A stretch of 64,000 bases of DNA from an uncultured Candidatus Saccharibacteria bacterium (lineage in GTDB: Bacteria; Patescibacteriota; Minisyncoccia; RBG-13-40-8-A), in the NCBI GenBank assembly GCA_965231075.1, contig OZ246412.1, forward strand, positions 553,787 to 617,786, written 5' to 3'. Below, piece after piece: positions 2,080-40,502 of the stretch. Within the stretch, counting starts at the first letter, position 1. The number at the start of each line of letters is the position of its first letter. Made by a program: the position numbers and the translations under genes. The notes beneath the pieces were generated by a model, which ran no database searches, was not told the origin of the DNA, and saw nothing but the letters and a program-made list of their open reading frames with translations.

Positions 2080-4434
2080 TTATTTTTTCTTTTTTAATAT
2101 TTTTTCTAATTCATCTCTGTCTAAAACCCAAAAGTTGTCTTTTTCTTTCGCATTTTCATCGTAAAACATCTCTCCCTTAATTTTAAATCCGGAATTTTTT
2201 AATACACCTTCCGAAAGTAGGTTTCTGGGGTTCGTGAAGGCTACAATTGTAGTTTTTTTTGATTTATTTAAAAGCGCAAAGCCAATTTGTCTAATTGCGC
2301 TCGGAACGTGTCCTCTTTCTTTATTTTTCTGTGGCAGGCCTTCATCGACAAGTCGCGCAAAACTCATTTCTAAAATTTCTGAATCTTTAGATAAGTCAAT
2401 TAACCCACTTTTTTTCAGATTAATGATCGTATCTTCTTCTGGGCTATAAAACCAAACAAATCCCTCCATTCGCCCTATCGCCTTTTCTCCGCAAATACCA
2501 TAAAAATATTCCTCCGAAAAATGTTTTTTAATCTCTTCTGTGGTATATGTGTCACCTGTCATCCATCTGCCCACTTCTGGTTGTGTATCAATATCTTGAA
2601 ACGCTTCTATATCTTTTGGGTTATTGGGGTCGGCCCTCTTAATCCATGCTGATTCTTGCTCAAAAACTTTCACTGGTCCCTCCTTTGGATTTTCGGGTAG
2701 TTTGCGATCCATAGACGGATTTTCTTCTGTTTTATTAATTTTCTTTATAAAGTCTGATATTTCCTTAACTGTTTCATTTGGTTCACAGTTATTTTTTATC
2801 CATCGACTGGCCTTTCTAGAATTCATTGTTTTGTCTTCATAAAGACTTAAAACTTCCTTTGATAATTCCTCGTTTGTTTGATAAAAAGCGTCAATGTTAG
2901 TTATCGTTGCGGTCCCAGTTTTAAAATCAAAAACCACAACTCCTCGCTCAAATAGTTTGTTTAGAGTATATACGGCAGCGTAATAATATTCATCACCATC
3001 AGATTTATCAAAAAGTTCCTCTAGTGAGTTTTCTAGGGCCGCAGAAGCCCACTCTTCTTTGGTTCCTTTTATTGCGCCTTTTTCGATTAATTTTGGTAGA
3101 AATTGTCGATAGAACTGTTCGGCTTTGACCTCATTAATAATCAAGCCCGGCTCTGCTCCTAATCTCTTCGCTCCCGGATCACCGTCTTTGTGAAAATGAC
3201 AGAATTCGTGAAATGAGGTGATAAAAAAAGACATTTTTAGACTATAGTGTTCTTGAGTATTACTAATTCGGAAATTTTTTTCTTTTGCTATAGCGTTTTG
3301 TAGTTTTTTTTGCTCAGCGAGAAAAATCATGCCAACCGATTCTCCCATTTGAGCGGTAGTTTTCATAGCTAATCCGGCGCCATAGTCTCCGATAGAATTA
3401 ACAACCGTAAACTTCTTTTCTGTTACATTTTTTGCTAGCTCGGTATGACCCATTTGTTCGAGCTCCTGAGAAATTATTTCTTGACAAGCAGATAGATTTT
3501 TTTCTTCTTCTGGAGACTTTAGTGTAATTTTTATTTCTGGATCAAAATATGGCGGCTTAAAGTATCCTCCTGTATATTCTGTTGGAACTATTAAAATCGG
3601 AAAATCAGACGAAGTTGATTGTCTATAAAGTTCGCTTACTAATTTATATTGTTCACTGATTTTTTCTATATCCTTTTCCCTATAAGAATCGCTCAGTGCT
3701 ATTAAATATTTTTGAAAGATATCCCCGCCGGGAAACTTTTGCCATTCAATTGGCATTTCACTTATCTCTTTAAATTTTCGACAAAGATATTGTGTGTCAC
3801 GATTAAATAATTCGTTGATTGTGTATGATTTTTCTTCTCCGGGCAAATAAAATTGAGTTGATAAAGACCCTTCTTTTGGCTGGGGCGACAGCCTTGAAAA
3901 TGCCAAGAAGCGGATAAAAAGATTATCGGCACGCATCGAAGCATCAAGAAGTTTTGTGGTAACATCACGTAGTTCTAAATTTAGTCCTAACTTTTCAAGA
4001 TCTTTTTCTTCGGCATGGGCGATGACCTCTTGATAGGCTTTTGTTTCCATGTGTCGCACGACGTGAGCAGCAACGGCGAGCAAAACCTCCCTTCTTTGTC
4101 CTTGAATTTCCGGTATTCCTTCGGGCCAATTATTAATAACCGTGTCAACAATTTCCTTTAGGGGAATGTTTTTAATTGACGAAACTTTTTCATGGAACGC
4201 GCCGACTTTGGTTTGTACTTGTTCTAAAACCACTCTTTGAACATTTTCGAAAAGTTCTAGAGAATTTTCCCACGGACCAATTTTTTCCGGCAAATCTTTT
4301 TTCCATTCAGTATAACCATCTAATAGCCCTAATGTTTTATAAATCCCTCTCAGTCCTGGCTCAGAATCAATTAATTTTTCTTGTTTAGTTCTTGGTTTTG
4401 GTTCCTTACTTTCTCCCATGTTTATTTTATCCAA
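2080..4434 (-). CDS. Hypothetical 784-aa multidomain protein: central HExxH (zincin-like) motif plus C-terminal GNAT-like acetyltransferase domain
   Basis: Long uninterrupted ORF. HEFCHFH motif; C-terminal ~150 aa (RGHVPSAIRQIGFALL...VAFTNPRNLLSEGVLKNSGFKIKGEMFYD) has GNAT motif-A/B-like spacing. Confidence 0.5.
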   Translation of the reverse strand: MDKINMGESKEPKPRTKQEKLIDSEPGLRGIYKTLGLLDGYTEWKKDLPEKIGPWENSLELFENVQRVVLEQVQTKVGAFHEKVSSIKNIPLKEIVDTVINNWPEGIPEIQGQRREVLLAVAAHVVRHMETKAYQEVIAHAEEKDLEKLGLNLELRDVTTKLLDASMRADNLFIRFLAFSRLSPQPKEGSLSTQFYLPGEEKSYTINELFNRDTQYLCRKFKEISEMPIEWQKFPGGDIFQKYLIALSDSYREKDIEKISEQYKLVSELYRQSTSSDFPILIVPTEYTGGYFKPPYFDPEIKITLKSPEEEKNLSACQEIISQELEQMGHTELAKNVTEKKFTVVNSIGDYGAGLAMKTTAQMGESVGMIFLAEQKKLQNAIAKEKNFRISNTQEHYSLKMSFFITSFHEFCHFHKDGDPGAKRLGAEPGLIINEVKAEQFYRQFLPKLIEKGAIKGTKEEWASAALENSLEELFDKSDGDEYYYAAVYTLNKLFERGVVVFDFKTGTATITNIDAFYQTNEELSKEVLSLYEDKTMNSRKASRWIKNNCEPNETVKEISDFIKKINKTEENPSMDRKLPENPKEGPVKVFEQESAWIKRADPNNPKDIEAFQDIDTQPEVGRWMTGDTYTTEEIKKHFSEEYFYGICGEKAIGRMEGFVWFYSPEEDTIINLKKSGLIDLSKDSEILEMSFARLVDEGLPQKNKERGHVPSAIRQIGFALLNKSKKTTIVAFTNPRNLLSEGVLKNSGFKIKGEMFYDENAKEKDNFWVLDRDELEKILKKKK

Positions 4435-10824: not shown

Positions 10825-12072
10825 ATGTCACAACAAAATAACGATCAAATCAACGCCCTACCCGAATACGAGGTCAGGACAATGAAAGACGATCTTAATA
10901 AAGTAGAGGGAAGGGCAATTCAACCGAAATTGGTGAATTTAAAAGTACCTGAAATACAAGTTCCCAAGCCATCAATAAAAATTGATGAACCACCAAAGGA
11001 ATTGCCGATTGTGGATAAAATCGAAAAACCCACAGAGCCCACAATTAAGACGTTTCCCAAACAATCGTTATCAGAAGAAATTGACAACATTCTTAACGCC
11101 CCTGGATTTGAACCAAAGCCTGAGCCCAAATCAGAGATTAAGCCAAGCGTCGAATCAAAAACAAACACACCGGAAATCGTAACACCAAAAATAACAATCA
11201 ATGAGACCAAAAAATCCTCTTTACCGGATATTGAGGATTTTATTGTCCCCGCGCCACCCGTTCCACCGCCCGCGCCCACACCTAAACCTAAACCATTAAT
11301 GCCTGTCCCTCCGATCACTGAACCGATTTCAATTGAAACCACGAAGTTTATAAAATCTGAAAATAACGAAATAGAAAGAACGATTAAAACCCACAAAACA
11401 AAAAAAATATTAACAATTCTGGGAATTATAATTATTGTGGGATTGATTGCTGGACTTGGATATTGGTTAATTACAAAACCTAGACCAACAGAACCAGAAC
11501 CACCAGTTATTGAACAACCAGAAACTCCTGCATCGTTAATTAGAGTTGATGAGACTAAGGTCTTTAAAATGGAAAATAATTCTTCCCTAGTCGATATCTT
11601 AATCAATGAAGAAAATTCTGGACAACCAGAAAAGACTCTTAAGAGAATTGTGCCAACAAAAATCAATGGAAAGGCTTTGTCTCTAAATGAATTGATCCAA
11701 GAATTACAAATCTATATTCCTCCATATACACTGGGAGAATTAAATAAAAATTACACATTAGTTGCATATAAACAAGGCAACCAACAGAGGTTAGGATTGA
11801 TTATTGAGATAAAGAACTTGCCAGGATTCATCGAAAAATCCAGATCGTGGGAGAATACAATGACTTGGAACTTCCAAGGAATATTTTTAAATCATCAGCC
11901 CAACAACCTGACCGTGAAAGGATTTTCCGACTACAAATACAACGAAATAAATGTTCGCTTCGTTAATCTCGCTGTCCCCGAACTGTCTATCGATTACGCG
12001 ATTCTGAATAATTTATTTGTGGTATCTACTAGTCGAGAATCGATGCGCAATATCATCGATAGATTAAAATAG
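10825..12072 (+). CDS. Hypothetical Pro-rich protein with a single central TM helix
   Basis: 415-aa ORF tightly following pnp; PxP-rich N-terminal half; TM segment ILTILGIIIIVGLIAGLGYWLI. Confidence 0.5.
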   Translation: MSQQNNDQINALPEYEVRTMKDDLNKVEGRAIQPKLVNLKVPEIQVPKPSIKIDEPPKELPIVDKIEKPTEPTIKTFPKQSLSEEIDNILNAPGFEPKPEPKSEIKPSVESKTNTPEIVTPKITINETKKSSLPDIEDFIVPAPPVPPPAPTPKPKPLMPVPPITEPISIETTKFIKSENNEIERTIKTHKTKKILTILGIIIIVGLIAGLGYWLITKPRPTEPEPPVIEQPETPASLIRVDETKVFKMENNSSLVDILINEENSGQPEKTLKRIVPTKINGKALSLNELIQELQIYIPPYTLGELNKNYTLVAYKQGNQQRLGLIIEIKNLPGFIEKSRSWENTMTWNFQGIFLNHQPNNLTVKGFSDYKYNEINVRFVNLAVPELSIDYAILNNLFVVSTSRESMRNIIDRLK

Positions 12073-12237
12073 GAACTTGTCCTATAACTGCGGGGTGGGG
12101 ATAACTTGTTTAGAACATTATTTTAGAAAAACAAAATTCGTCGATGTCAAGAGCAAAAACACTCTATTTTGGCTCTAAAAATACAATATTGTCTCGAAAC
12201 CTTGATATTGACGAAATCAACAAAACTTATCCACAAT

Positions 12238-13773
12238 ATGAATAAAGTTTATTCAGCGGCAATCACAGGGCTTGAAGCTGAACCCATAGAAGTGGAGGCA
12301 GATTTATCGTCTGGGCTCCGCTTTTTTAGTATTGTCGGCCTTCCCGATAAGTCGGTTGAAGAGTCCAAAGAAAGAATCGCTGCTGCGATTAAAAATAGTG
12401 GCGCCGAACCACCCCACAAACAAAATAAGCGCGTGATTATCAATCTCGCACCCGCCGATTTACGCAAAGAAGGTTCGGGATATGATTTACCAATCGCTTT
12501 AAGTTTTTTGTTGTCCTCTGAACAAATTAAATTTGATCCTAACGATAAAATTTTTATTGGCGAACTGGCTTTAAATGGCGAGGTGCGTAGAGTTAATGGA
12601 GTTTTGCCGATGTGTTTAATGGCCAAAGAAAAAGAAATTAAAAATGTTTTTATTCCTAAATCAAATAGTAATGAAGCGCGATTGGTCGATGGTTTAAATA
12701 TTTATCCTGTGGATTCGTTGGCAGAGTTAATTGGATTTTTAGAAAATCGAATTGAGATTATTCCGCTCGAACCATTAAATGAGGATTTTTTGGAGGGATT
12801 TGAAACTGCGTTTCAGGCAACGGTTGATATGGCCTATATTAAGGGCCAAGAAAATGCTAAACGCGCATTAGAAATTGCCGCCAGTGGAAATCATAATGTT
12901 CTGATGACTGGCCCACCAGGTTCAGGAAAAACTTTACTCGCCAAGGCGATTCCCACGATTTTGCCAAAAATGTCTTGGTCGGAAATGTTAGAAGTAACTA
13001 AAATTTATAGTGTATCGGGAAAGCTTTCACATAAAAAACCCTTAATTCATCAGAGGCCATTTCGCTCCCCTCATCATAGTGCCTCCGAAGCGAGTTTGAT
13101 TGGGGGCGGGGGATTTGCTAGGCCGGGAGAGATAACTTTGGCGCATAGGGGAGTTTTGTTTATCGACGAATTCCCGGAAGTGCATCGCGATGTTCTGGAA
13201 AGCTTAAGACAACCACTTGAGGATGGAGTTGTGCATGTTTCACGAGCGAAAGCGAGTTATAGTTTCCCGTCTCGATTTATTTTAATTGCGGCAATGAACC
13301 CTTGCCCTTGCGGATATTACGGCGATCCCGAAAAACAGTGCACTTGCAATCAGCAACAAATTAGCAAATATCAACGCAGAGTTTCTGGACCAATTATGGA
13401 TAGAATTGATTTATATGTCGAAGTGCCACATGTTAAATACGAAAAACTGACCGACGAATCAGTTGAAGGTTCAAGCGAAGAAATTCGACAAAAAGTGGAG
13501 AAAGCGAGAAAAATTCAATTAGAAAGATTTAAAGACGACCACATTGTTACTAATTCAGAAATGAATATTCCGTTAGTTAAAAAGCATTGTCAGACCGACG
13601 CACGAGGTGAAATGTTGTTAAAAAACGCCGTAAATAATCTACATATGTCTGCGCGTGGTTACCATCGTATTTTAAAACTTGCTCGCACCATTGCTGACCT
13701 CGCCGACTCGCCCAACATCACTCATATCCACATTGCCGAAGCACTACAATATCGACCGAAGATGGAAATATAG
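12238..13773 (+). CDS. comM: YifB/ComM-family Mg-chelatase-like AAA+ ATPase
   Basis: Walker A GPPGSGKT, Walker B LFIDEF, CPCGYYGDPEKQCTC zinc-finger-like motif; typical YifB N-terminus (MNKVYSAAITG). The ORF track starts at a TTG at 12169; the ATG at 12238 is more likely. Confidence 0.85.
   Translation: MNKVYSAAITGLEAEPIEVEADLSSGLRFFSIVGLPDKSVEESKERIAAAIKNSGAEPPHKQNKRVIINLAPADLRKEGSGYDLPIALSFLLSSEQIKFDPNDKIFIGELALNGEVRRVNGVLPMCLMAKEKEIKNVFIPKSNSNEARLVDGLNIYPVDSLAELIGFLENRIEIIPLEPLNEDFLEGFETAFQATVDMAYIKGQENAKRALEIAASGNHNVLMTGPPGSGKTLLAKAIPTILPKMSWSEMLEVTKIYSVSGKLSHKKPLIHQRPFRSPHHSASEASLIGGGGFARPGEITLAHRGVLFIDEFPEVHRDVLESLRQPLEDGVVHVSRAKASYSFPSRFILIAAMNPCPCGYYGDPEKQCTCNQQQISKYQRRVSGPIMDRIDLYVEVPHVKYEKLTDESVEGSSEEIRQKVEKARKIQLERFKDDHIVTNSEMNIPLVKKHCQTDARGEMLLKNAVNNLHMSARGYHRILKLARTIADLADSPNITHIHIAEALQYRPKMEI
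13520..13773 (+). repeat. Direct repeat copy 1: native 3' end of comM (second copy at 15155..15408, ~95% identical)
   Basis: By-eye alignment of 13526-13773 with 15161-15408 shows ~12 substitutions; encoded peptides are identical except H to Y. Confidence 0.8.
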
Positions 13774-13810
13774 TTATCCACAATATTAACTATTGACAAA
13801 CATATCATAT

Positions 13811-14188
13811 ATGATATATACTGGTTCTAGTGAATATAAAGTAAAATTTTATACAGATCCAAAAACCGGAAAGAGTTTTGTGTTCGAATATATTGATGAT
13901 TTGGACGAAAAACAAAAAGCCAAAGTATTAAAATTTATTGAATTTTTAAGAGAACACGATGGCGTATTGGACGAACCGTTTTCAAAACACATTAAGGGCA
14001 AAATTCGCGAATTAAGAGTTGATTTCGGTAAAAACAAACATAGAATATTTTATTTTACGTTTATCAATAAGAACATTGTACTGCTTCACGCGTTTTTGAA
14101 GCACACACAGAAGACTCCCCTTAGTGAAATACGGACTGCCGAAAATAACTATTATATTGTAGTTAATAATCCAAAAATTTATGAATAA
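13811..14188 (+). CDS. HigB/RelE-superfamily toxin-like protein (phage Gp49-like, DUF891 type)
   Basis: C-terminal KIRELRVDFGKNKHRIFYFTF...IVLLHAFLKHTQKTPLSEIRTAE matches the Gp49/HigB-like family; followed by an overlapping HTH gene. The ORF track starts at a TTG at 13793; the ATG at 13811 is preferred. Confidence 0.55.
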   Translation: MIYTGSSEYKVKFYTDPKTGKSFVFEYIDDLDEKQKAKVLKFIEFLREHDGVLDEPFSKHIKGKIRELRVDFGKNKHRIFYFTFINKNIVLLHAFLKHTQKTPLSEIRTAENNYYIVVNNPKIYE

Positions 14189-14471
14189 AAAAATAAAGGC
14201 AAGAGATTTCCAAAAATATCTTGCACAACAATTAAAAAATCCTCGGTTTAAGAAACATTACGACGACTATGGTAAACAATTGGAAATTGCTTACCAGATT
14301 TTACAATTACGAAAACAGAAAAACATCTCTCAGTTACAGCTGGCCAAAAAACTCAAAACCAAACAAAGCAACATCGCTCGAATCGAAGCTGGCAAACAAA
14401 ACTTAAGCATCCAAACCATCGACAGTATTGCCCGCGCATTAAATAGTGATTTTACTCTTAATTTTTCTTAA
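14181..14471 (+). CDS. HTH XRE-family DNA-binding protein (putative HigA-like antitoxin)
   Basis: ISQLQLAKKLKTKQSNIARIEAGKQNLSIQTIDSIARAL is a helix-turn-helix cro/C1 pattern; overlaps the upstream toxin-like gene by 8 nt. Confidence 0.65.
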   Translation: MNKKIKARDFQKYLAQQLKNPRFKKHYDDYGKQLEIAYQILQLRKQKNISQLQLAKKLKTKQSNIARIEAGKQNLSIQTIDSIARALNSDFTLNFS

Positions 14472-14627
14472 GAATTAAATATAAATTTATGATAGGCAAT
14501 ATTATTCTAGGTGCTTTAATTTTATCTCTTGCTTGGTATTTTGGAAAATGTATAAGCAATCTTTTCGACAGAATAGACAAACTTGAACACGAATTAATAT
14601 CTCGGATAGAAAAAAGCAAATAAATTT

Positions 14628-15152
14628 ATGGGGCAATCAATTAGAAAAAACCGTCCCAAAGAAGGAGGACGGGTTTTTAGAAGGGGCGTTTCCGTGCTTA
14701 TTGTAAACAATAAAAATGAATTTTTGCTTATAAATCTACAATCTTTTGCGGAGCATTTTTTCGCTGTTCCTGGTGGCGGGATAGAAAAAAACGAATCTTT
14801 AATTGATGCTGCGTATCGAGAAATACAAGAAGAGCTCGGAATACGCAAATCATTTCTTGAGTTCGTCGGAGAGTGTAAAAAACCAAATAAGTTTACGTTT
14901 AAAGTGAAGAAACTTAATCGTGATGGCGTTATATATGACGGACAAGAAAGATATTTTTTTGGTTTTAAATTCACAGGAGGTGATAGTGAAATTAAATTAC
15001 GATCAGAAGAGGTGCGCAGATATAAATGGGTTACATACGAAAATCTAAAAAATTATCTTTTGTTTGATAATCAGTTACAGGCAACATTAGAGAAATTGTT
15101 AGAGTTATTTCCCGATGCCCGTAGCGAAAAAAGAAAATGGCGTCAAAAATGA
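14628..15152 (+). CDS. NUDIX hydrolase
   Basis: Nudix box GGGIEKNESLIDAAYREIQEELGI (GX5EX7REUXEEXGU). Confidence 0.7.
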   Translation: MGQSIRKNRPKEGGRVFRRGVSVLIVNNKNEFLLINLQSFAEHFFAVPGGGIEKNESLIDAAYREIQEELGIRKSFLEFVGECKKPNKFTFKVKKLNRDGVIYDGQERYFFGFKFTGGDSEIKLRSEEVRRYKWVTYENLKNYLLFDNQLQATLEKLLELFPDARSEKRKWRQK

Positions 15153-15154
15153 GG

Positions 15155-15408
15155 TTAAAAGATTTAAAGATGACCACATTGTCACAAATTCAGAAATGAA
15201 TATTCCATTAGTCAAAAAGCACTGTCAGACCGACGCACGAGGTGAAATGTTGTTAAAAAACGCCGTAAATAATCTACATATGTCTGCGCGTGGTTACCAT
15301 CGTATTTTAAAACTTGCTCGCACCATTGCTGACCTCGCCGACTCACCCAACATCACTTATATCCACATTGCCGAAGCACTACAATATCGACCAAAAATGG
15401 AAATATAA
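15155..15408 (+). pseudogene. Duplicated 3' fragment of comM (C-terminal ~83 codons), remnant of an insertion or duplication event
   Basis: ORF 15115..15408 encodes ...FKDDHIVTNSEMNIPLVKKHCQTDARGEMLLKNAVNNLHMSARGYHRILKLARTIADLADSPNITYIHIAEALQYRPKMEI, near-identical to the comM C-terminus; it has no ATPase domain and no credible independent start. Confidence 0.75.
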
Positions 15409-15684
15409 AGGACCACTTATCGAGTGGTCCTTTTGAGCTTGACGCAGGGAAAGTAAAAAGCATGACCGCTTAACATTCGTTCCCCCGTTTTTTTTGTCTG
15501 TGCAGATGTCTTCCAATAGACGCAAGGTGCAGGCAATAAATCCCTTCCCATCGAACGAACTTTTACCGTGGCTAACGAATTCAACTTTCTTGCCTGTAAA
15601 ATTTTCTCTCGCCTCGGAATGAAACCCTCCCTGTCCCAGTTCGACAATTTCACATTCATCTCCGGGATTAAATTTTCTTTGCAT
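15379..15684 (-). CDS. Hypothetical protein (101 aa)
   Basis: Strong SD (ttaaggaggaacac) directly upstream of the ATG at 15684; the C-terminal part overlaps the comM-repeat and hairpin, so the true stop may lie earlier; relatively GC-rich. Confidence 0.45.
   Translation of the reverse strand: MQRKFNPGDECEIVELGQGGFHSEARENFTGKKVEFVSHGKSSFDGKGFIACTLRLLEDICTDKKNGGTNVKRSCFLLSLRQAQKDHSISGPLYFHFWSIL
15409..15434 (+). terminator. Rho-independent terminator-like hairpin immediately after the comM-fragment copy
   Basis: aggaccact-tatcg-agtggtcct followed by tttt. Confidence 0.5.
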
Positions 15685-15718
15685 GTGTTCCTCCTTAATT
15701 AAAATATAACATGGAATT

Positions 15719-15750
15719 AAAAAATCCCCCGCAACACGGGGGATTTTTTA
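15719..15750 (-). terminator. Hairpin with flanking A/T runs (terminator of the LysM/CHAP gene; bidirectional-capable)
   Basis: aaaaaatccccc-gcaacac-gggggatttttt. Confidence 0.6.
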
Positions 15751-16749
15751 GTAAATGTATCCTCTAATTCGCCAATCATCTTGATTTAAGATTCTCACAC
15801 GCTTAATACCGCGCCCCAAACTCATTTCAGAAATTGTAATTGTGTCTTCTCCTACTGCCTCAACATAAGCAACGTGTCCATAAACGCTTTCTTTAGTTGA
15901 AACGATCGCCCCAACTCTTGGTTCGGTTCCGGTTTCAAATCCATATTGTGGGGCTTTTCCTAACCAGGTCTTAGCATCTCCATTCCAAGGAATGTATCGT
16001 TTCTGGGCAACGTACCAGGTACATTGACCCCAGGGAAATCCATGACTCGTATCTCCATATGGTCCAAGCTCTTCGGGAGTATAAGAAGCATATGATCTTG
16101 CTTTTGCAGGGATAAATTGAATTGGTTTTTGGCCGTCGGGAATAATAATTTCTTGTCCAATAGCCAAGACGCCATTGGCTGGCAAACCATTTAAATCGAT
16201 AGTTTTCTCTGTGTTTCCTTTATACGTTTTAACAATACTATCTAATGTATCGCCCTTCTTAACCGTATGCTTTACTCCTGATACTGGCAAAATTGATAAT
16301 TTTTGACCAACTTTAATCTTACTGGTTGGAGTTAAATCGTTGGCCCAAAGTAAGGTGTTGGTTGTAATTCCAAACATCGAAGCAATTTCTGAAGGAATGT
16401 CCCCTTGCTGAACTTCGTAGACAATGACACTGCCTCTGCCCGACGAAGAAAACGGCGAAACCGCTGCCGGAGAATTATGGGCAACAAAAGAATTGTCTTG
16501 TATTAAGACACTAGAATCTTTAAATGACTCATCGACAAAATATGACTCTTCGACTATTTCCTCGTAAGGATTTAAATAGTCCGAAGCATACACACAAGAA
16601 CCGCTTATGGCTGAATTTATGTCTTCTTGGTCTGTATCAAAATTACCATTAAAACTTCCGGCGATCGTTGTGGTTACGAATAAAACCATTAAGACAATAA
16701 AAATAACTGCTGCTACCCTAAAATATGGGGTTTTGAGCAGTTTTCCCAT
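15748..16749 (-). CDS. Secreted peptidoglycan hydrolase with LysM repeats and a C-terminal CHAP domain
   Basis: N-terminal TM/signal; two LysM-like segments (VQQGDIPSEIASMFGITTNTLLWANDL; HTVKKGDTLDSIVKTY); CHAP-like C-terminus (GQCTWYVAQKR...GHVAYVEAV). Confidence 0.8.
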   Translation of the reverse strand: MGKLLKTPYFRVAAVIFIVLMVLFVTTTIAGSFNGNFDTDQEDINSAISGSCVYASDYLNPYEEIVEESYFVDESFKDSSVLIQDNSFVAHNSPAAVSPFSSSGRGSVIVYEVQQGDIPSEIASMFGITTNTLLWANDLTPTSKIKVGQKLSILPVSGVKHTVKKGDTLDSIVKTYKGNTEKTIDLNGLPANGVLAIGQEIIIPDGQKPIQFIPAKARSYASYTPEELGPYGDTSHGFPWGQCTWYVAQKRYIPWNGDAKTWLGKAPQYGFETGTEPRVGAIVSTKESVYGHVAYVEAVGEDTITISEMSLGRGIKRVRILNQDDWRIRGYIY

Positions 16750-16975
16750 AAAACTACTAGTTGTTTGAATCTTATAAATAGGTTTGAGGTTAAACTGATT
16801 ACCTAAAATAAAAAATACCTAACTGAGTTTTGGTATTTCTAATACTATCATAAAAATAGATCCCTGTCAAGCAAAATTCGGTAAAATTTATGCCCGTGTT
16901 ATACTTAATTTATGGACGATATTTTGATTAATTTGCCAGCCCGAGGCTGGTCCGCCTTGGGCGGAAATCCATCAT

Positions 16976-18901
16976 ATGGAAACTATACTAGAAAATCTTA
17001 ACCCCAAGCAAAGCGAAGCGGTGACCACGATTGATGGACCGATTTTGATATTGGCTGGACCGGGATCGGGCAAGACAAAAGTGCTCACCCATCGCTTGGC
17101 CTATATGGTAAAATCGGGGATTTTCCCACAAAATATCTTAGCGGTAACATTTACCAACAAAGCGGCCGGTGAAATGAAAAATCGAATGCAAACCCTGTTA
17201 AAAAATGAGAATTTTATACCATTTATTGGCACGTTTCACTCTTTTTGTTTAAAAACCCTTCGCAAAGAAATTCCTAAGCTAGGATATAAATCCAGTTTTG
17301 TAATTTATGATGAAGATGATCAATTGGCTATCGTTAAAGACGTTATTAAACGCCTAGATATCAATCCCGATCAGTTCTCTGCCAAACGCGCCCTACACAC
17401 AATTTCTTCTTTGAAAAACGAAATTATTGATTACAAAGAATATGAAAATAATGCGCAAGAATTTTTCGAAAAAATAATTGCCAAAATTTATAGAGGATAT
17501 CAGGAAGAATTGCAAAAAAATAACGCCCTAGATTTTGACGATCTAATTATGTTCATGGTTAGAATCTTCGAAGAACGACCTGATGTTTTGGAGAGATACC
17601 AAGAAGAATACAAATATATCATGGTCGATGAATACCAAGACACCGATCCATCACAATATAAATTGATTAAGTTGTTATCCGCAAAATACAAAAACGTTTG
17701 CGTAGTAGGCGACGATGCTCAGTCGATTTATTCTTTCAGAAACGCTGATTTTAGAAATATTTTAAATTTTGAAAAGGATTATCCGCAAGCTAAAGTCGTA
17801 ACTCTCGACCAAAATTATCGATCAACACAAAATATTTTAGATGCTGCCTCAAAATTGATTTCTAAAAATGTCTATCAAAAACCGAAAAATCTTTGGACAG
17901 AAAATCCTTCCGGTCCACTGATTAATATCGTCGGGACTTGGAACGAAAAAAGTGAAGCTGAATTTATCGTTAAAAAAATCGTTGAATTAACCCAACAAGG
18001 GTATAAATTAAGCGATTTCGCAATTTTTTACAGAACCAATGCTCAGTCACGTGCCGTGGAAGAAGCGTTTATTAAAAACAATATTCCTTACAAACTAGTC
18101 GGAGCAATCCGGTTTTATCAGAGAAGAGAAATTAAGGATTTAATCGGATACCTAAAATATGTTTCCAATGGCGATGAATTGAGTTTGAAAAGAATCATCA
18201 ATACTCCTACTCGAGGTGTAGGCAAAATTACGATCGATAAAATTCTCCAACAGGGCGTTGAAAAAATTGCTGAAGAAAAAAATGAAGTGGGGTTATTTCA
18301 TAAAATTATCCAAAAAGCTAAAGAACTCGCCTTAAATTCTCCTCTGTCGAAACTTTTGAAATTTATTCTCAAAGAAACTGAATATCAAAATTATTTAAAG
18401 AAAGAATATGGTGACAACGAATTGCAAGCTGGGCTTTCCGAAGATGAAGCGCGTTGGCAGAATGTGGAAGAATTGGTTAGCGTCGCTGCCGAATACGACG
18501 ATCTCCCGCCGCCACAAGGACTAAATGAGTTCCTGGAAAAAACCGCTTTACTTTCTGATGCTGATGAGATTCAAAACAATCAAAATGTCGTACACTTAAT
18601 GACTTTGCACACCGCTAAAGGATTGGAGTTTCCCGTGATCTTTATTATTGGTTGTGAGGAAGGAATTCTCCCTCATTCACGAAGCTTGTTGAATCCGCTG
18701 GATATTGAAGAAGAACGCCGATTATTCTATGTTGGTATTACCAGAAGCAAAATCCATCTACATTTAATCGTTTCTCAACGCAGAACGAGTTGGGGATCGC
18801 AGGAAGCAAATCCGCCTTCAAGGTTTTTGTCGGAGATACCCGAACATCTAATAAATTATGAAGATTTTGAACCAGATATTAAGGGACTGATAGACTTCTA
18901 A
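16976..18901 (+). CDS. pcrA: UvrD/PcrA-family ATP-dependent DNA helicase
   Basis: ILAGPGSGKTKVLTHR Walker A; UvrD helicase motifs throughout (VDEYQDT, VGDDAQSIYSFR); 641 aa. Confidence 0.9.
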   Translation: METILENLNPKQSEAVTTIDGPILILAGPGSGKTKVLTHRLAYMVKSGIFPQNILAVTFTNKAAGEMKNRMQTLLKNENFIPFIGTFHSFCLKTLRKEIPKLGYKSSFVIYDEDDQLAIVKDVIKRLDINPDQFSAKRALHTISSLKNEIIDYKEYENNAQEFFEKIIAKIYRGYQEELQKNNALDFDDLIMFMVRIFEERPDVLERYQEEYKYIMVDEYQDTDPSQYKLIKLLSAKYKNVCVVGDDAQSIYSFRNADFRNILNFEKDYPQAKVVTLDQNYRSTQNILDAASKLISKNVYQKPKNLWTENPSGPLINIVGTWNEKSEAEFIVKKIVELTQQGYKLSDFAIFYRTNAQSRAVEEAFIKNNIPYKLVGAIRFYQRREIKDLIGYLKYVSNGDELSLKRIINTPTRGVGKITIDKILQQGVEKIAEEKNEVGLFHKIIQKAKELALNSPLSKLLKFILKETEYQNYLKKEYGDNELQAGLSEDEARWQNVEELVSVAAEYDDLPPPQGLNEFLEKTALLSDADEIQNNQNVVHLMTLHTAKGLEFPVIFIIGCEEGILPHSRSLLNPLDIEEERRLFYVGITRSKIHLHLIVSQRRTSWGSQEANPPSRFLSEIPEHLINYEDFEPDIKGLIDF

Positions 18902-18944
18902 CAAATTTCTAATTATTTTAATTGACTCAATTGTTCTAAGTCCG

Positions 18945-19748
18945 ATGATAGAAATCCAAAAAATTCTTAATAAATACAACACCAAACCCAATAAATTCAT
19001 GGGGCAGAATTTTTTGATTGATGAGAATGTTTTAAATAAAATTTTAGAAACTTCCAACATTAAACCAAATGACATTGTGCTAGAAATTGGTCCTGGTTTA
19101 GGAGTTTTAACGTTAGAATTAGCAAAAAAAGCTAAAAAAGTTATTGCCATCGAAAAAGATAAAGAATTATGTGAAATATTGCAAAACGTTCTAATTGCTC
19201 AAAATGTTAAAAATGTTGAAATTATCCACGACGATATCTTGCGATTAAAACAAATACAACAATTACAACATTACAAAGTCGTTGCAAATATTCCCTACTA
19301 TCTAACCTCTCTCTTGATCAGAATGTTTTTAGAAACAAATAATCGACCATCGGAAATAATTTTAATGATTCAAAAAGAAGTTGCAGAAAGAATTTGTGCC
19401 GTTCCACCAAAAATGTCCTTACTCGCCGTGTCGGTACAGTTTTACGCTAAACCGGAAATTATTTCCTTCGTTTCAAAAAATAGTTTTTATCCCGTGCCAG
19501 AAGTAGATTCGGCTATCATTAAAATCGTACCTCAAACAAAACTGGAAATCGACACAAAAAAGTTTTTTGGGATTGTGAAGAAAGGATTCGCATCAAAGAG
19601 AAAAATGTTAATTAATAATTTAAAGTCCGAATTTCAAAATCCAAATATCAAATCAATTCTTGAAAACATCGGACTAAATCCAAAAGTTCGGGCAGAAAAT
19701 TTATCGATTGACGACTGGATAAAAATCTATGAACAAACAAATCTTTAA
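18945..19748 (+). CDS. rsmA: 16S rRNA (adenine1518/1519-N6)-dimethyltransferase
   Basis: GQNFLIDENVLNKI...VLEIGPGLGVLT SAM-binding motif, NIPY motif; 267 aa. Confidence 0.9.
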   Translation: MIEIQKILNKYNTKPNKFMGQNFLIDENVLNKILETSNIKPNDIVLEIGPGLGVLTLELAKKAKKVIAIEKDKELCEILQNVLIAQNVKNVEIIHDDILRLKQIQQLQHYKVVANIPYYLTSLLIRMFLETNNRPSEIILMIQKEVAERICAVPPKMSLLAVSVQFYAKPEIISFVSKNSFYPVPEVDSAIIKIVPQTKLEIDTKKFFGIVKKGFASKRKMLINNLKSEFQNPNIKSILENIGLNPKVRAENLSIDDWIKIYEQTNL

Positions 19749-22443: not shown

Positions 22444-25320
22444 ATGCTCACAAAATTTCAAAAAACGATTATATTCTCATTGGTCTTTTGTCTGATGTTC
22501 GGTTTGGTCTTTAATATATTTATTATAAAACCGAAATCAGTTGAGGCGACCGACGGAGGCGCGGGATGGGTACAGGCGATTAAAGATCTGGTACTTGATG
22601 CTGTTGGCTGGGCTGTAACAGATCAAATCTTACAACCACTAAAACAAAAGATTCAAGATTGGGGCATGGGCAAAACTAGCGACGACAACAAACCATTTTT
22701 TGTTATTGACTGGAAAGAGTTTGCCAACGAAGCTTTAGATGTCGCTTCAGCAAGATTTATAGAAGAAGTGGGACTAACCAAGCTTTGTGGTCCACTAAGA
22801 ATTAGTATTGGTCAAAACCCATTGTTTACAACATATTATACTGACCAACCGAAATATAAAAATTATGCTGCCTGTACACTCGACTCTGTTATAAGTAACG
22901 TGGATTCATTTCTCGATAATCCATCGATTAGCGTTTTTGGTTGGAATGCTTGGTCAGTTTTAACACAACCAAATAATAATTTTCTGGGCGCCTACCTGTT
23001 GGCTAGTCAAAGAAGCATAGAAATCGCCAATGAGGAAGCTAAGGCCAAAGACAAAGAAGTGGCTGCTAGTGGTGGGGTGAAAAACGAGACCACCACAAAC
23101 GAAACCGATACAGATGCTTGCCTTAAAAAGTGTGATTCAGAATTTGACGTGAATAGAGAAAACAATGGTCAGCTGTGGGAAGATTGCACCGATAAATGTG
23201 AAACCACAACTAAAGGAGTCCCCACAAAAAGTTCAGTTAAAAACCTCGGTTCGACAATAAAGAAAAATATCGACGACGCTCTGGGAGCAGATATGAGTAG
23301 AATCATTAGTGCTGATGAAATTAGTGAGCTCGTTGGTGTATTTTTTAGTGCCGTTATAAACAAAGCAATCGATGGGTTGGGGTTGGTACCATCTAGTGCG
23401 AATAAAACCGCAGCAGAAGAATCTCGCGATGAAATGAATGACCTTTATTCCTATGGAGATGGCAGCAATGAGATGACCGAAGAAACAAAACAGAATATTC
23501 GTTTGTCAGTTTTAAACGGAATGCTTAAGGGCGTGCAGATGATATCTAGATCAACAGCAAAATGTGAAGACGAAGATACCATGATAACCGATTTGGATTT
23601 TAATAAAAATATTAGTGATATATACTCAGCACAATTAGAGGCGCTGTATGTGGGAACTGCAGGGGTAAATCTCAAACCGGATTTTATAGTTTTGGATTCT
23701 CCGTATGCGCCATTTTCTCTATATGGTTATGGATGGAGCAATATTCCGGGAGTTAAAATGCCAGCTAAATGCAAGAAAATAACTGCCCAGGCAGGATTAG
23801 GATCGTCTGGTTCTTGTACAAATATCGTCAGCGGTCTTGAACCAAATTATAGTCCCAACTGTAAGAGATGCATATATGATGGAAGCGAATTAAATTGTCC
23901 TCCTGCGCCGTATCCTCCGTTCAGCAGCGTATCGGGGGATGTGGTAACGCCAGTGATCCCAGACGATGCAACGATTTTAGCCAAACAAGATTTTTATAAT
24001 AAATGCATGGAATGGTATGACGTAACTAAAAATAGATGCAGTGATTGCGTGAAGAAGGCTGATGCTAAATGTAATCAGGGGGACGAAATTGAAAAACAAG
24101 CATGCATTGAAGATGTCTGTAATAATTATGATGACCTTAAGCCACACGTTGCGTCTACTATCACTAGTAGCGTCGATTTTTACAACAAATGTCTATTAGA
24201 AGAAAAAAAATCTTCCTGCTTTACTTGTCTTAAAGAATATTTTATGCCTGCTTCATACTGTGACACTATGACTGAGTTTACAGCCAGATCATTAATCAAA
24301 TATCCTGCTGTCGTACTAGCGACAAATGTTGACGACGGTCGTTCTGTGGGAAGATACGACTCTACTTTTCAGGAAGCATTTGAAGATAGAGCTACCGAAT
24401 GTAATAACGATAAAAACAGAGGAGCAGCAATCGAAGTAAGCCTAATCTGCAGAATTATGCCAGAGTTCAAACATAATGGCATACAAATCTGTAGACAATA
24501 TTGTATGGGAAGCGGAATGACTGAAATAGAATTGAACGACATTTTAGATAATCGGCCAACTGATGGAGACTGTAATAACAAAAAAATAGGGATTGGTGGC
24601 TCAATTAACGTTTGGGATGTTGTTAAGAATGGAAACTTTCAACAACTAAGCAAATGTTGTGCAGCCACTAACACCACAAGCGTAAAAAAATATTCTACTT
24701 GTATAGGAGCATCGCAGCCCGCCGAAATCTGTACTTATGCGGTGCCACCAGAACAAGAGCCTTGGTGTTATTGTAGTGAAGGATATCGTCCACTGGGATT
24801 TACAAGAACCGGATTTCCACGATCTAGTGGATTGGGTGGGGATTGTAGTAATACTTCAGTTATTGATTGGACTACCAGTGGAATATCAGCGATACCATCT
24901 GGAAGAGAGGTTTACATATATACCAGCAATCAACCAGTAGACAGTGATATATATTATATTGCTAAGGGAGAATGCACCGAGAAAGACAATAATTGGGAGA
25001 ATGCCACTGGTCAAGGACTCGAAGATGGACAAGTTGACGAAGCTTATCATAATTTCACTATGAGTGAAATAACTCAACCATCGAGCGTAATTTGTTCCGG
25101 AAGTGGCGCAAATAGTGATTTTCAGTGCAATGAGGCAGCGGGACAATCGAGTCTCAATCTGGGGGTTTACCACACACAATTATTAGGACTTGGAGCCCCC
25201 GAATCTTCCACAGGGGTCCATATGTGTGCAAAATGCGAATCGTCTGATTCCGGATATCCGAGTTATGGATACAAAGATAAGTCAGGATATACGTCGGATC
25301 AATGCACTGGCAAACAATAA
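22444..25320 (+). CDS. Large (958 aa) secreted cysteine-rich protein, hypothetical surface component of the T4SS-like operon
   Basis: Signal/TM at the N-terminus; more than 60 Cys in clustered CxxC/CxnC patterns across the length; overlaps the next gene's start. Confidence 0.6.
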   Translation: MLTKFQKTIIFSLVFCLMFGLVFNIFIIKPKSVEATDGGAGWVQAIKDLVLDAVGWAVTDQILQPLKQKIQDWGMGKTSDDNKPFFVIDWKEFANEALDVASARFIEEVGLTKLCGPLRISIGQNPLFTTYYTDQPKYKNYAACTLDSVISNVDSFLDNPSISVFGWNAWSVLTQPNNNFLGAYLLASQRSIEIANEEAKAKDKEVAASGGVKNETTTNETDTDACLKKCDSEFDVNRENNGQLWEDCTDKCETTTKGVPTKSSVKNLGSTIKKNIDDALGADMSRIISADEISELVGVFFSAVINKAIDGLGLVPSSANKTAAEESRDEMNDLYSYGDGSNEMTEETKQNIRLSVLNGMLKGVQMISRSTAKCEDEDTMITDLDFNKNISDIYSAQLEALYVGTAGVNLKPDFIVLDSPYAPFSLYGYGWSNIPGVKMPAKCKKITAQAGLGSSGSCTNIVSGLEPNYSPNCKRCIYDGSELNCPPAPYPPFSSVSGDVVTPVIPDDATILAKQDFYNKCMEWYDVTKNRCSDCVKKADAKCNQGDEIEKQACIEDVCNNYDDLKPHVASTITSSVDFYNKCLLEEKKSSCFTCLKEYFMPASYCDTMTEFTARSLIKYPAVVLATNVDDGRSVGRYDSTFQEAFEDRATECNNDKNRGAAIEVSLICRIMPEFKHNGIQICRQYCMGSGMTEIELNDILDNRPTDGDCNNKKIGIGGSINVWDVVKNGNFQQLSKCCAATNTTSVKKYSTCIGASQPAEICTYAVPPEQEPWCYCSEGYRPLGFTRTGFPRSSGLGGDCSNTSVIDWTTSGISAIPSGREVYIYTSNQPVDSDIYYIAKGECTEKDNNWENATGQGLEDGQVDEAYHNFTMSEITQPSSVICSGSGANSDFQCNEAAGQSSLNLGVYHTQLLGLGAPESSTGVHMCAKCESSDSGYPSYGYKDKSGYTSDQCTGKQ

Positions 25321-27572
25321 TGGTAATAAAATTTATGAAAACAAACATGAAATCAAAATATAAAATTTCAACAATAACAATGATCGTAAGTATTGTTATG
25401 TTGGGAGTTATTGTCCCTGCGTATGCCCACGCAGGAGTCTTTAGTTTTATCGGAGATATCTTAGGAAATGTGGCCGCGGACTTGTTGTCGCTCTTAGTTG
25501 GTCTGATTCAGGGATTGTTGGGATTGTTAATAAAAGTTGGAGCTGCTTTTTTTGAGACAATGTTGAATTTTGGTTTCACTAGGAATTCTAGCGTTGATAT
25601 CGTTAAAACCGGATGGACGGTAACTAGAGATTTTGCAAATATGTTGTTTATACTCTTTATGATTGTGATTGCGTTTGCGACAATATTAAGAATAGAGGGC
25701 TACGGTATAAAAAAATTATTACCGAAGGTTATTGGTATAGCTCTTTTAATCAACTTCAGCATGGTACTATGTTCGGTGGTTGTTGACTTCAGCAATATTA
25801 CCGCCAATTTTTTTGTTAAGGATATAAACACCAAACTAAATGGCAAAACCATGGGAGCAGTGTTTGTGGATAGCATGAATCTATCCAAAATATTAACGTC
25901 TCAGATTGATTATAGTGGTTGTGACAAAACTTATCGAGAGGAACTATCGTCTTGTGATGAAATGAGAAAAACCATGGTGCCGGGTGATTATCAAAAATGT
26001 AGAACAAACGCCCAAAACGTAAGGGTTGCTTGTGAACAACAACTAGCAATAGCCGCACAAAACGCAGCTAAGCCCAAAAACGGATTAATTGAACTTATGG
26101 ATGTATTAATCTCTGGAATCTTTGGATCAATATTGTTGCTAATTGTAGTATTCACATTCTTCGCTGGAGGAGTCCTCTTGTTGATTAGAATGATATCCAT
26201 ATGGTTCTTGATCATGATCGTTCCCTTAGTTTTTATTTGCTACATAATACCGTCACTAAACTCTAATTGGAAAAAGTGGTGGGGAAAATTTCTCAATTGG
26301 TGTATTTTTGCACCTGCCTACAGTTTCTTTATCTGGTTAGCAATCAAAGTATCTATAGAACAATCCAATAAGAAAATCGTTGCAGGCATATCTAGTGCCA
26401 ATAATTATATATCAGACCCCGGAGTAACTAATAATCCGTTTATATTTAACCCTGGTCAAAATTTAATAAGTTTTGCATTTATCATTGCCCTTTTGGTCGG
26501 TGGGCTAATTGTAGCTAAATCTCTCGGAGTGTATGGAGCAGACACTGTGATGAAAATTGCAACCAACGCTAGAAAGGGTGCGACCGATTGGGCAAAGAGA
26601 AAAAGTACTGGCGCAGCTAAAGAGTTGGGCGCTAGAGGTGCTGGGTCATTGAAACAGGGGGTGGGGTCAATACTAAAAATGAAATACAGCCCATTTAAGA
26701 GTACGGGCAGGAGAATGGAAGCAGGTGGCAAGTTAATGAAACAGGACTCTGCTAGTGCCAAGGAAGTTGAAGCGTACAAGAAACGATTAGCTGTAATGTC
26801 GAGGGAAGATATGGTGGCCGAAATAAATTCCCCGCATTTACGAAAATCATTTAAATTAGCAGCCATACAAGAGGCTCAAAAGCGTGGAGACTTATCCAAA
26901 ACTGACAACCTCGACGCGATAAGATCATCTGTCAACACCCTCAAGGCTTACGGATACGATAAAAGCTCTTCGGATCTTCAGAATAATAGAGCAGACGCCA
27001 TTGAGGACAGAACAAAACAAAAAGAAATTGTCGAAAAAATGGCAAAAGAAGGTAAGCTTGGAGAGTTGTCTCTGCAAGCGATAAAGGATGAAAACGTAAC
27101 AGCATTATTGGCAGAGGTGTGTGAGCCACAACAACTCGAAGCAATAAGAAACACTTCTCGTCAACATGCTGAAGCTCTAGATAAGGCCCTAGAAGATATT
27201 ACCAATCCATTAAATGCAGCTGCCATGACAGCTAAACATATAAATCCTGCTCTAGAGAAAATACAACACGCTTATGCGGCTCAAACGGGCAAACTTGATA
27301 GATTAACCGCTGGCCCAACAGGTACGGCGCAATCATTTATAAAAGAGGTTGGGGCAAATTACGCCCTTAAGCGTGTTAAATCTGTCCCCGCAACAGCAAT
27401 GCCCGATATCGTGCCAAATATTCCCGTAAATAAACTTAAATCAATGATAGCAGAAATGGAAGATACTGCCGCAAAAGAAGTTATAACATACATCAAACAT
27501 ACACTGCCAAATACGCACGATTTATGGAAGCTTGTAGACAAAGATGAGTCCCTAAAGAATATCGCCCCATAA
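25302..27572 (+). CDS. Polytopic membrane protein, VirB6/TrbL-like candidate with a C-terminal coiled-coil extension
   Basis: Signal peptide, then at least 6 hydrophobic helices (aa ~40-420), then ~330 aa of hydrophilic K/E/A-rich tail; position in the operon before VirB3/VirB4-like genes. Confidence 0.4.
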   Translation: MHWQTIMVIKFMKTNMKSKYKISTITMIVSIVMLGVIVPAYAHAGVFSFIGDILGNVAADLLSLLVGLIQGLLGLLIKVGAAFFETMLNFGFTRNSSVDIVKTGWTVTRDFANMLFILFMIVIAFATILRIEGYGIKKLLPKVIGIALLINFSMVLCSVVVDFSNITANFFVKDINTKLNGKTMGAVFVDSMNLSKILTSQIDYSGCDKTYREELSSCDEMRKTMVPGDYQKCRTNAQNVRVACEQQLAIAAQNAAKPKNGLIELMDVLISGIFGSILLLIVVFTFFAGGVLLLIRMISIWFLIMIVPLVFICYIIPSLNSNWKKWWGKFLNWCIFAPAYSFFIWLAIKVSIEQSNKKIVAGISSANNYISDPGVTNNPFIFNPGQNLISFAFIIALLVGGLIVAKSLGVYGADTVMKIATNARKGATDWAKRKSTGAAKELGARGAGSLKQGVGSILKMKYSPFKSTGRRMEAGGKLMKQDSASAKEVEAYKKRLAVMSREDMVAEINSPHLRKSFKLAAIQEAQKRGDLSKTDNLDAIRSSVNTLKAYGYDKSSSDLQNNRADAIEDRTKQKEIVEKMAKEGKLGELSLQAIKDENVTALLAEVCEPQQLEAIRNTSRQHAEALDKALEDITNPLNAAAMTAKHINPALEKIQHAYAAQTGKLDRLTAGPTGTAQSFIKEVGANYALKRVKSVPATAMPDIVPNIPVNKLKSMIAEMEDTAAKEVITYIKHTLPNTHDLWKLVDKDESLKNIAP

Positions 27573-27578
27573 TCTTTT

Positions 27579-27989
27579 ATGCAATTTCAAGTACCACAAT
27601 TTATTGACATTGAGGACAAGGTTATTGGTCCCCTAACGATTAAACAATTCCTATATCTTTTAGCGGGCGGTGTTATTGTGTTTATCCTTTACAAAACATT
27701 GAATCTATTTGCGACAATTGTCCTGGGAGTTCCCATAGTGGGTATTGCTATTGCTCTTGCTTTTGCAAAAATTGGCAACCAGCCGTTTATTAATTTCTTA
27801 AAAAATTTCATTGGATTTGTTAAAAGACCGGATTTCTATGTTTGGAAAAAACCGATAGGAAAAAATAAGATTGTTGAACCAAACGAAGATATCGAAATCA
27901 TCCAAAAAGTGCCAGCCAAAACAAAGCTTAATCCAGAAGCTAAAGATAGTTTACAGGACATGGGATGGAAAGTAGAAATCGAAAAATAA
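27579..27989 (+). CDS. Small two-TM protein, VirB3-like candidate
   Basis: 136 aa; two adjacent TM helices (LYLLAGGVIVFILY...ATIVLGVPIVGIAIALAFA); immediately upstream of VirB4-like ORFs. Confidence 0.35.
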   Translation: MQFQVPQFIDIEDKVIGPLTIKQFLYLLAGGVIVFILYKTLNLFATIVLGVPIVGIAIALAFAKIGNQPFINFLKNFIGFVKRPDFYVWKKPIGKNKIVEPNEDIEIIQKVPAKTKLNPEAKDSLQDMGWKVEIEK

Positions 27990-27993
27990 TATT

Positions 27994-28626: not shown

Positions 28627-28630
28627 ATTC

Positions 28631-30864: not shown

Positions 30865-30868
30865 TATT

Positions 30869-31603: not shown

Positions 31604-31608
31604 TAAAA

Positions 31609-31971: not shown

Positions 31972-31989
31972 TAAATATTATAAAATCAT

Positions 31990-40501: not shown

Positions 40502-40502
40502 T

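Follow-up and report, generated by a model that had tools for sequence, protein, structure and literature searches.

The subject of this analysis is a 64,000-nt stretch (hereafter the window) of contig OZ246412.1 (assembly GCA_965231075.1, positions 553,787 to 617,786, forward strand) from an uncultured Candidatus Saccharibacteria bacterium, and in particular its transformation helicase gene comM (yifB), the 3' end of which is present twice, on either side of a toxin-antitoxin (TA) pair, a small open reading frame (ORF) and a NUDIX hydrolase gene. The intact comM gene (12238..13773, + strand) encodes a protein of 511 amino acids (aa), ends in TAG and carries the Pfam domains ChlI, Mg_chelatase and Mg_chelatase_C; against the NCBIfam model TIGR00368 the product scores 608.9 bits (cut-off 362.4) over model positions 1–499, which is a full-length match. 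An exact look-up of this ComM protein returned no identical record. All of its relatives come from metagenome-assembled genomes of Patescibacteria (the Candidate Phyla Radiation, CPR), and the related loci that were compared with the window are referred to as L001–L030; the ATG start of the gene agrees with that in L001 and L002.

Copy 1 of the repeat (13523..13773, +) is the 3' end of the working gene: it directly continues the gene body, and the TA cassette comes after it. Copy 2 (15158..15408, +) is a displaced 3' end belonging to a second allele, with the stop codon TAA, and runs on into the hairpin and downstream flank of the ancestral arrangement. An ungapped alignment at an offset of 1635 gives 240 identical positions out of 251 (95.6%) between 13523-13773 and 15158-15408. 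An earlier note on this DNA had reported a duplicated comM end of ~95% identity, with peptides differing only by a change of His to Tyr; this was confirmed, as its slightly longer intervals (13520-13773 and 15155-15408) give 241/254 (94.9%), and the two peptides are the same from RFKDDH through to the stop save for that one residue. A repeat search returned the same pair as 263 nt at 94%. The spacing between the copies is ~1381–1384 bp, and copy 2 is without frameshift, premature stop or degenerative change.

The TA cassette begins immediately after the TAG stop codon. Its left end (13774..13822, +) comprises the TTATCCACAATAT motif and a promoter-like site, TTGACA-18 nt-TATACT, with the palindrome ATATCATATATGATAT in the spacer; this site was the top match (11/12) of a 5-kb scan. 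The toxin gene (13811..14188, +), 125 aa from its ATG and likewise called as a 125-aa product in relatives, is of the HigB/Gp49 type within the RelE/ParE superfamily (PF05973, 80.1 bits, cut-off 23.9), and its score falls under the cut-off of the nearest NCBIfam model. It overlaps by 8 nt the gene for a HigA-like antitoxin (14181..14471, +) of the helix-turn-helix (HTH) XRE type (PF01381 HTH_3, 51.7 bits, cut-off 23). Gene order and domains identify the pair as a putative HigBA-like type II TA system, the likeness to HigBA modules consisting of a toxin-first order, a Gp49/HigB toxin combined with an HTH-XRE antitoxin, overlapping genes, and a promoter palindrome typical of autoregulation. The 9-mer TTATCCACA, with which the cassette starts, is a perfect DnaA box that occurs five times in the window (12227-12235, 13774-13782, and at 11010, 29095 and 48977) against 0.7 expected.

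To the right of the antitoxin gene lie an ORF of 44 aa with a hydrophobic N-terminus (14489..14623, +; from the ORF list) and the NUDIX hydrolase gene (14628..15152, +; PF00293, 71 bits); with the TA pair these make up the cargo that the earlier note had listed, and both Pfam and the ORF list bear out that content. No counterpart of the 44-aa ORF was found by tblastn in any compared locus, so that it is present only in this genome. The NUDIX protein is RppH-like, but an RppH-type identity is not supported, as the best RppH model gave 55 bits against NCBIfam cut-offs of 116–259, leaving a general NUDIX domain only. In five contigs the closest homologue (P0122, 83% aa identity) has a 290-aa gene on one side and a 417-aa ATP-grasp gene on the other, and at the DNA level 14660-15138 is 89% identical to L016 2719-3196. 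More than 100 Patescibacteria proteins or contigs show this conserved chromosomal NUDIX/ATP-grasp operon, which in L016 also has a 561-aa gene. A second NUDIX relative, P0124, lies in an unrelated context that does not account for the origin of the 44-aa ORF. Records of the source contig (626,281 bp) hold neither an ATP-grasp homologue nor a second NUDIX of this family, and the genome seems to keep only the relocated gene; a second NUDIX-domain gene (127 aa) at the far end of the window (63450-63833, -) is unrelated to it.

What is left of the ATP-grasp gene is a 5' remnant (15115..15170, +) consisting of the start codon and first ~5 codons, an in-frame loss of ~60 codons, and then the KKENGVKNEVKRFK codons. 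The ~60-codon loss represents a second small deletion, between AAAAAACAAAAT and AAAAAGGAAAAT, and the gene now amounts to ~19 codons. Positions 15127-15171 match L016 3369-3413 at 43 of 45 positions, inside the ATP-grasp ORF and ~172 nt past the NUDIX stop, and as the KKENGVKNEVKRFK peptide falls within the KKE..EVKRFK block conserved across ATP-grasp homologues, KKENGVKNEVKRFK is native ATP-grasp sequence. When L016, comM copy 1 and the window are aligned with one another, the illegitimate junction falls at an 11-nt microhomology, AAAGATTTAAA (15158..15168, +), which is found in both parents, at 13523-13533 in comM and at ~3399-3409 in the ATP-grasp gene of L016. Since the window switches from one parent to the other inside this shared 11-mer, copy 2 is joined on its left, through microhomology, to a truncated housekeeping gene, and this edge is not the core of an attachment site. 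The join creates a chimeric ORF of 97 aa (15115..15408, +) in which the N-terminal remnant of the ATP-grasp protein is in frame with the last 83 aa of ComM (PF13335, Mg_chelatase_C, 89 bits); the ATP-grasp start codon is kept, with the same overlap with the NUDIX stop codon that is seen in the native operon. The reading frame survives the internal ATP-grasp deletion as well as the fusion to comM, for which the chance is 1 in 9.

On its other side copy 2 continues into the native surroundings of a comM gene. Directly 3' of it stands the hairpin that the earlier note had described as a terminator (15407..15434, +; dG -16.5 kcal/mol), here predicted to be the native comM terminator; an equivalent hairpin follows the comM stop in L012, L006, L021 and L002, with compensatory changes. 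It is missing from the terminator-scan list because its T-run has only four T. Copy 2 and the right flank align as a single block (15155-19730) to L006 7283-11853, and 15158-15712 aligns to L012 4923-5476, both of which are genomes with an empty site. A small ORF of the downstream flank (15379..15684, - strand), preceded by a strong AGGAGG ribosome-binding site and with tblastn homologues in L002, L006 and L012, marks the ancestral right-hand context; no Pfam or NCBIfam model matched it. Its 3' end crosses the comM hairpin and reaches 30 nt into copy 2, and in L021 and L023 ORFs of similar size are called where it sits, a likeness of position only.

The 11 differences between the copies are of a particular kind: 10 are third-position and synonymous (counting TAG/TAA) and 10 are transitions, and under neutral change at least 10 of 11 synonymous differences would be expected with P ~2e-6 to 2e-5. 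At the single His/Tyr site, the differing state occurs in the functional ComM of five out of 10 relatives. These two observations identify copy 2 as the intact 3' end of a second, related comM allele. The stop codons differ in the same sense, copy 1 ending in TAG as in all four TA-bearing relatives (4/4) and copy 2 in TAA as in all six empty-site relatives (6/6). Copy 2 therefore never drifted as dead DNA and represents the 3'-terminal part of another, functional comM allele that arrived recently. The suggestion that the second comM end came from a related lineage and not from a simple tandem duplication is therefore supported; the latter was ruled out as the cargo is single-copy and the copies are distinct alleles. 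All differences are confined to the outer 65 and 64 bp (~8.5% divergence), leaving a central 122 bp identical (P = 0.006 for such a gap). Relatives differ at 15–30 sites within this central region, which rules out sequence constraint as the cause of the identity and, together with the 251-bp length, shows that the repeat is not due to chance. The identical centre is compatible with conversion of one copy by the other, or with divergence that was patchy among recombining strains.

A comparison with the relatives places the arrangement in a wider context. The order of the flanking genes is conserved: PNPase, a variable gene, comM, a variable stretch, a LysM-CHAP gene, UvrD helicase and KsgA. Taking ComM aa identity to the window as a measure of relatedness, the CHAP gene comes directly after comM in L005 (80%), L022 (86%), L026/27 (84%) and L028–30 (83%), the hairpin and small conserved ORF come after it in L006 (87%) and L012 (95%), and the TA pair in L001/L013/L014 (~95–96%), L002 (92%), L021 (88%), L023 (87%) and the window itself. 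The downstream flank of comM is indeed a variable hot spot, as had been proposed, being empty in L012, L006, L022, L005 and L026–L030 and carrying other cargo in L001, L002, L021 and L023. In every TA-bearing genome the comM TAG is followed by TTATCCACA(A/G)TATTAACTATTGACA, and in every empty genome the comM TAA is followed directly by the hairpin or by unrelated intergenic sequence.

To the right of the antitoxin stop, each lineage has different DNA: an ORF of 106 aa in L001, one of 76 aa in L023, and a terminator with a ~12-nt comM remnant in L021. In L002 (8235-10560), the antitoxin stop is followed by a 45-nt comM remnant encoding IHIAEALQYRPKMEV*, a 39-codon 5' fragment of a second antitoxin (74% identical) and four ORFs without a Pfam match, and the array ends in ATAGAAATTTA followed by ATGGAAATATAA (a 12-nt comM remnant) and the hairpin; such a series of displaced comM ends points to two or more events in succession. 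Displaced ends of 251 nt (window), 45 and 12 nt (L002) and ~12 nt (L021) are therefore found at the same site, while the NUDIX gene and the 251-bp copy are present in the window genome only among the compared relatives.

The left junction of the TA cassette is conserved in L001, L002, L013, L014, L021 and L023, and the aa identity of the antitoxin is 89.6% in L001, L002, L013 and L014. The DNA identity of the cassette between lineages (79–85%) tracks that of comM (77–83%), with one exception, thus indicating that the TA pair has long been resident in the clade and did not arrive with the NUDIX gene. The earlier proposal that TA and NUDIX form one cargo unit does not hold, as four other lineages carry the TA pair at an identical junction and the NUDIX gene is unique here. 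In the exceptional pair, L021 and L023, comM is 95.4% identical and the adjoining TA cassette only 85.0%, a mismatch which points to recombinational exchange of either the TA alleles or comM.

By comM body and upstream flank the nearest relative is L012, and since its site is empty, the presence of the TA pair is patchy on the tree; this is as expected where empty alleles replace islets by recombination. The nearest relative shifts across the islet, from L012 upstream to L002 over 15.6–16.8 kb. Sliding-window identity along comM located no crossover within the gene. Further mosaicism at the locus is seen upstream of comM, where the gene for a proline/lysine-rich membrane protein of 415 aa (10825-12072) is hypervariable and aligns at the DNA level in L002 only, and the genes flanking it align in all relatives. 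A separate event is seen in L013 (contig ena:ERZ27257428:k141_311688), which is 99.97% identical to L001 from comM nucleotide 87 onwards. Over L013 1-5860 the first 86 nt of comM (12238-12323 in the window) and the upstream sequence are swapped for at least 5.7 kb of mobile-element-like genes, namely small ORFs and genes for a DnaG-type zinc-ribbon primase and a DnaB-like AAA_25 ATPase; the element extends beyond the end of the contig, and a 292-aa ORF at the junction is without a Pfam domain. In this clade comM has thus also been hit at its 5' end.

Taken together, the explanation which we regard as probable is a composite product formed without an integrase, in which homologous recombination and an illegitimate join, of the type known as homology-facilitated illegitimate recombination (HFIR), were combined during strain-to-strain exchange of DNA at a variable, TA-anchored site. 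The layers and the junction can be read from the sequence itself, and from them HFIR is inferred as the mechanism. The first layer is an old, presumably addictive HigB/HigA-type TA cassette placed right after a TAG-terminated comM in the whole clade. The second is lineage-specific DNA to the right of the TA pair, represented here by the 44-aa ORF and the NUDIX gene still attached to the ATP-grasp stump. The third is a pristine 251-bp comM end of a second allele on its ancestral TAA, hairpin and downstream genes, joined to the stump via 11 nt. Such a structure would be produced if DNA from a related strain underwent homologous recombination on one side and a microhomology-guided illegitimate join on the other. 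HFIR junctions usually involve 3–10 bp of microhomology, with an insertion coupled to a deletion (PMC3240628).

Within this explanation, the version which we tentatively prefer, at somewhat short of even chances, is an incomplete “curing” of the islet by an empty-site donor anchored in the downstream flank. The donor would have carried comM, TAA, hairpin, small ORF and CHAP gene, with the downstream flank as the homologous anchor, and the join would have connected donor comM position -251 to the resident ATP-grasp gene, so that the rest of the latter was deleted and 251 nt of donor comM were carried in as a passenger. With such a donor, a complete double crossover would remove the islet and leave an L012-like empty site; the partial event would spare the TA pair, an outcome that addiction would favour. 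A second version, which we think possible at perhaps one chance in a few, starts from a fragment circularised at the same microhomology and containing the comM end, the TA pair, the 44-aa ORF, the NUDIX gene and the ATP-grasp stump, which would then have been taken up into an empty-site comM through one homologous crossover. In the experimental work (PMC3240628), re-circularised DNA gave gene-end duplications of variable length by single crossovers. In either version later gene conversion or patchy allelic divergence would account for the identical central 122 bp. The data fit the incomplete curing and the circularised fragment alike, and both need an earlier state with NUDIX and ATP-grasp genes to the right of the TA pair.

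This explanation should nevertheless be considered with some caution, as several points weigh against it. No donor or intermediate genome with TA pair, 44-aa ORF, NUDIX gene and full ATP-grasp gene in a row was found among the compared loci, and the step that placed the NUDIX and ATP-grasp genes beside the TA pair is therefore a postulate, as is natural transformation in this organism. The shift in nearest relative across the islet is weak evidence, given that the locus is mosaic elsewhere too, and 11 nt is at the long end of the microhomologies reported for HFIR. An equally good account of the 12-nt remnants in L002 and L021 would be a short attachment-site core or a target duplication left by an ancient insertion of the TA cassette. 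Finally the two in-frame events, if not due to chance, hint at selection on the chimeric ORF and not at a passive scar.

The earlier note had instead put forward a decayed integrase islet, i.e., a circular element with a replacement comM 3' end in its attP site that integrated at comM and later lost its integrase. This we consider unlikely, although the topology of gene end, cargo and displaced near-identical end, with 251-bp direct repeats flanking the cargo, is the one expected after insertion of such elements, the site has empty as well as occupied alleles, and the two copies are different alleles; 12-nt repeats of the comM end also flank the islets of L002 and L021, and a separate mobile element lies in the comM 5' end of L013. 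However, the supposed attR boundary is the 11-nt join of comM to an ATP-grasp fragment, so that the arm beside the supposed core is a truncated housekeeping gene and not element DNA. Neither is there a fixed crossover point or constant core, as the boundaries vary between 251, 45 and 12 nt and here the core would start at AAAGATTTAAAGA (comM -251), and the TA pair is syntenic in relatives that lack both the NUDIX gene and the long repeat. The statement that no integrase remains was itself correct: the 64-kb window has 66 ORFs with a length of 60 aa or more, and a Pfam scan of all of them gave no integrase, resolvase or transposase domain, nor was an integrase domain found in the ORFs adjoining comM in L013 or in one cargo ORF of L002. 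Searches of element collections, which hold few CPR elements, gave no viral, plasmid or phage record either: IMG/VR contains no relatives of the toxin or of the 97-aa comM-end ORF, and blastn of 13500-15440 against PLSDB plasmids and INPHARED phages returned no match.

Slightly less probable still is a duplication within the genome, by template switch or unequal exchange beside the NUDIX/ATP-grasp stump, that yielded a useful chimeric 97-aa ORF under purifying selection. The retained ATP-grasp start codon with its native overlap, the two in-frame events, the predominance of synonymous differences (10 of 11) and the lack of any disabling change in copy 2 would all be in keeping with this. In contrast, an in-frame fusion has a chance of 1 in 9, expression of the chimeric ORF is hypothetical, the TAA and hairpin of empty-site alleles would be hard to obtain from a resident comM with TAG and TA pair, and 122 identical bp beside flanks that have diverged by ~8.5% are better explained by allele mixing or gene conversion than by steady divergence. 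A related and highly speculative idea is that the 97-aa ORF is expressed through the translational coupling of the NUDIX operon as a free-standing ComM C-terminal domain that hampers assembly or activity of the ComM hexamer, and so dampens the deletion of the TA islet by transformation; if true, this mini-protein would be the protein-decoy counterpart of what AbaR gains by breaking comM.

An assembly or strain-mixture artefact, in which two co-occurring strains were collapsed or chimerised, is very improbable: the source is a metagenome-assembled genome and repeats of ~250 bp exceed typical k-mers, but an independent Logan unitig (k=31) from SRR12133403, on record for 2 samples, matches 13728-15252 at 100%, spanning the copy-1 tail, TA pair, NUDIX gene and copy-2 head and ending exactly where 31-mers become common to both copies, so that both inner junctions exist in reads, apart from the genome assembly, and the 11-nt microhomology is too short for an assembler jump.

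The arrangement bears its closest likeness to two known systems. With HFIR, as summarised for S. pneumoniae, A. baylyi and P. stutzeri (PMC3240628), the proposed event would share the combination of homology on one side with a short microhomology on the other, the insertion of DNA beside the anchor with loss of resident DNA, and independence from any element-encoded enzyme. However, HFIR was seen in experiments and is here deduced from a natural genome, the microhomology is 11 nt as opposed to the usual 3–10, the “foreign” insert duplicates the 3' end of the gene next to it, and competence of the host is presumed. The orphan arrays of type VI secretion system (T6SS) effector, Rhs and contact-dependent inhibition (CDI) loci (PMC5361080) also combine a constant upstream gene with a cassette and shifted remnants of earlier gene ends, the array alleles coming from different strains and not from duplication, and without an integrase; HFIR has been proposed as the mechanism behind these displaced 3' ends (PMC5361080). 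The resemblance extends to L002, where a full comM is followed by a 45-nt and then a 12-nt remnant. The present locus differs from these arrays in that its anchor is the transformation helicase gene comM instead of a toxin gene, a type II TA pair takes the place of an effector-immunity pair as the retained module, and the displaced end encodes a whole Mg_chelatase_C domain.

Integrase-borne islands that restore the end of their target gene, such as SGI1 at the trmE 3' end (PMC8409611) and those with dusA-specific integrases (PMC4482086), are alike in topology and in having occupied and empty alleles; here, in contrast, the 64-kb window contains no integrase, there is no constant core, the boundary is a microhomology join, and the cargo is not inherited as a unit. 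The analogy with AbaR islands drawn previously is not supported. AbaR/Tn6022 is Tn7-like (TnsABC, TniQ, TnsF), enters the interior of comM with a 5-bp target duplication and disrupts the gene (PMC11014353), and this disruption shields the island from removal by transformation (PMC11441513). In the window comM is intact, the site is at the 3' end, transposition domains are absent and the repeat is 251 bp, not 5 bp. What is shared is the gene family and the theme of conflict between chromosomal islands and their removal by natural transformation.

The remainder of the window has the character of a housekeeping region, encoding RNase J, PNPase, PcrA/UvrD, KsgA, dnaA and dnaN, and in addition to ComM also RuvA, RuvB, RuvC and a PilB-like ATPase. 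A cluster at 22444-33165 resembles the type IV secretion systems (T4SS) of CPR bacteria, with a PrgI-family protein, a TraG/VirB4-type P-loop ATPase, a T4SS pilin and several large ORFs without a Pfam match, and may bear on DNA exchange. The dnaN gene (39386-40501), just downstream of dnaA (37793-39175), stands out in the GC profile over 39001-41000, with ~20–29% GC against ~36% for the genome; its Asn/Lys/Ile-rich product is a full-length beta clamp with all three Pfam domains, and the gene may have been replaced or be fast-evolving.

On the best reading, this locus records a known kind of event in a new place, namely homologous and illegitimate recombination at a TA-anchored variable site. 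It serves as a counter-example to an annotation shortcut, as the action of an integrase cannot be deduced just from an intact gene end followed by cargo and a displaced end; tracing the parent sequences of each junction can separate the mechanisms. The value of the finding lies mainly in this caution for island calling and in natural evidence of strain-to-strain recombination in CPR bacteria: the sequence speaks for DNA exchange between strains of uncultivated Patescibacteria and for the fixation of illegitimate joins, with both parents identified for one such junction. The presumably addictive TA pair that lies just 3' of the transformation helicase gene, patchy in its distribution and with empty sites nested among occupied ones, is moreover a candidate system in which transformation would remove selfish DNA and addiction modules would resist that removal.

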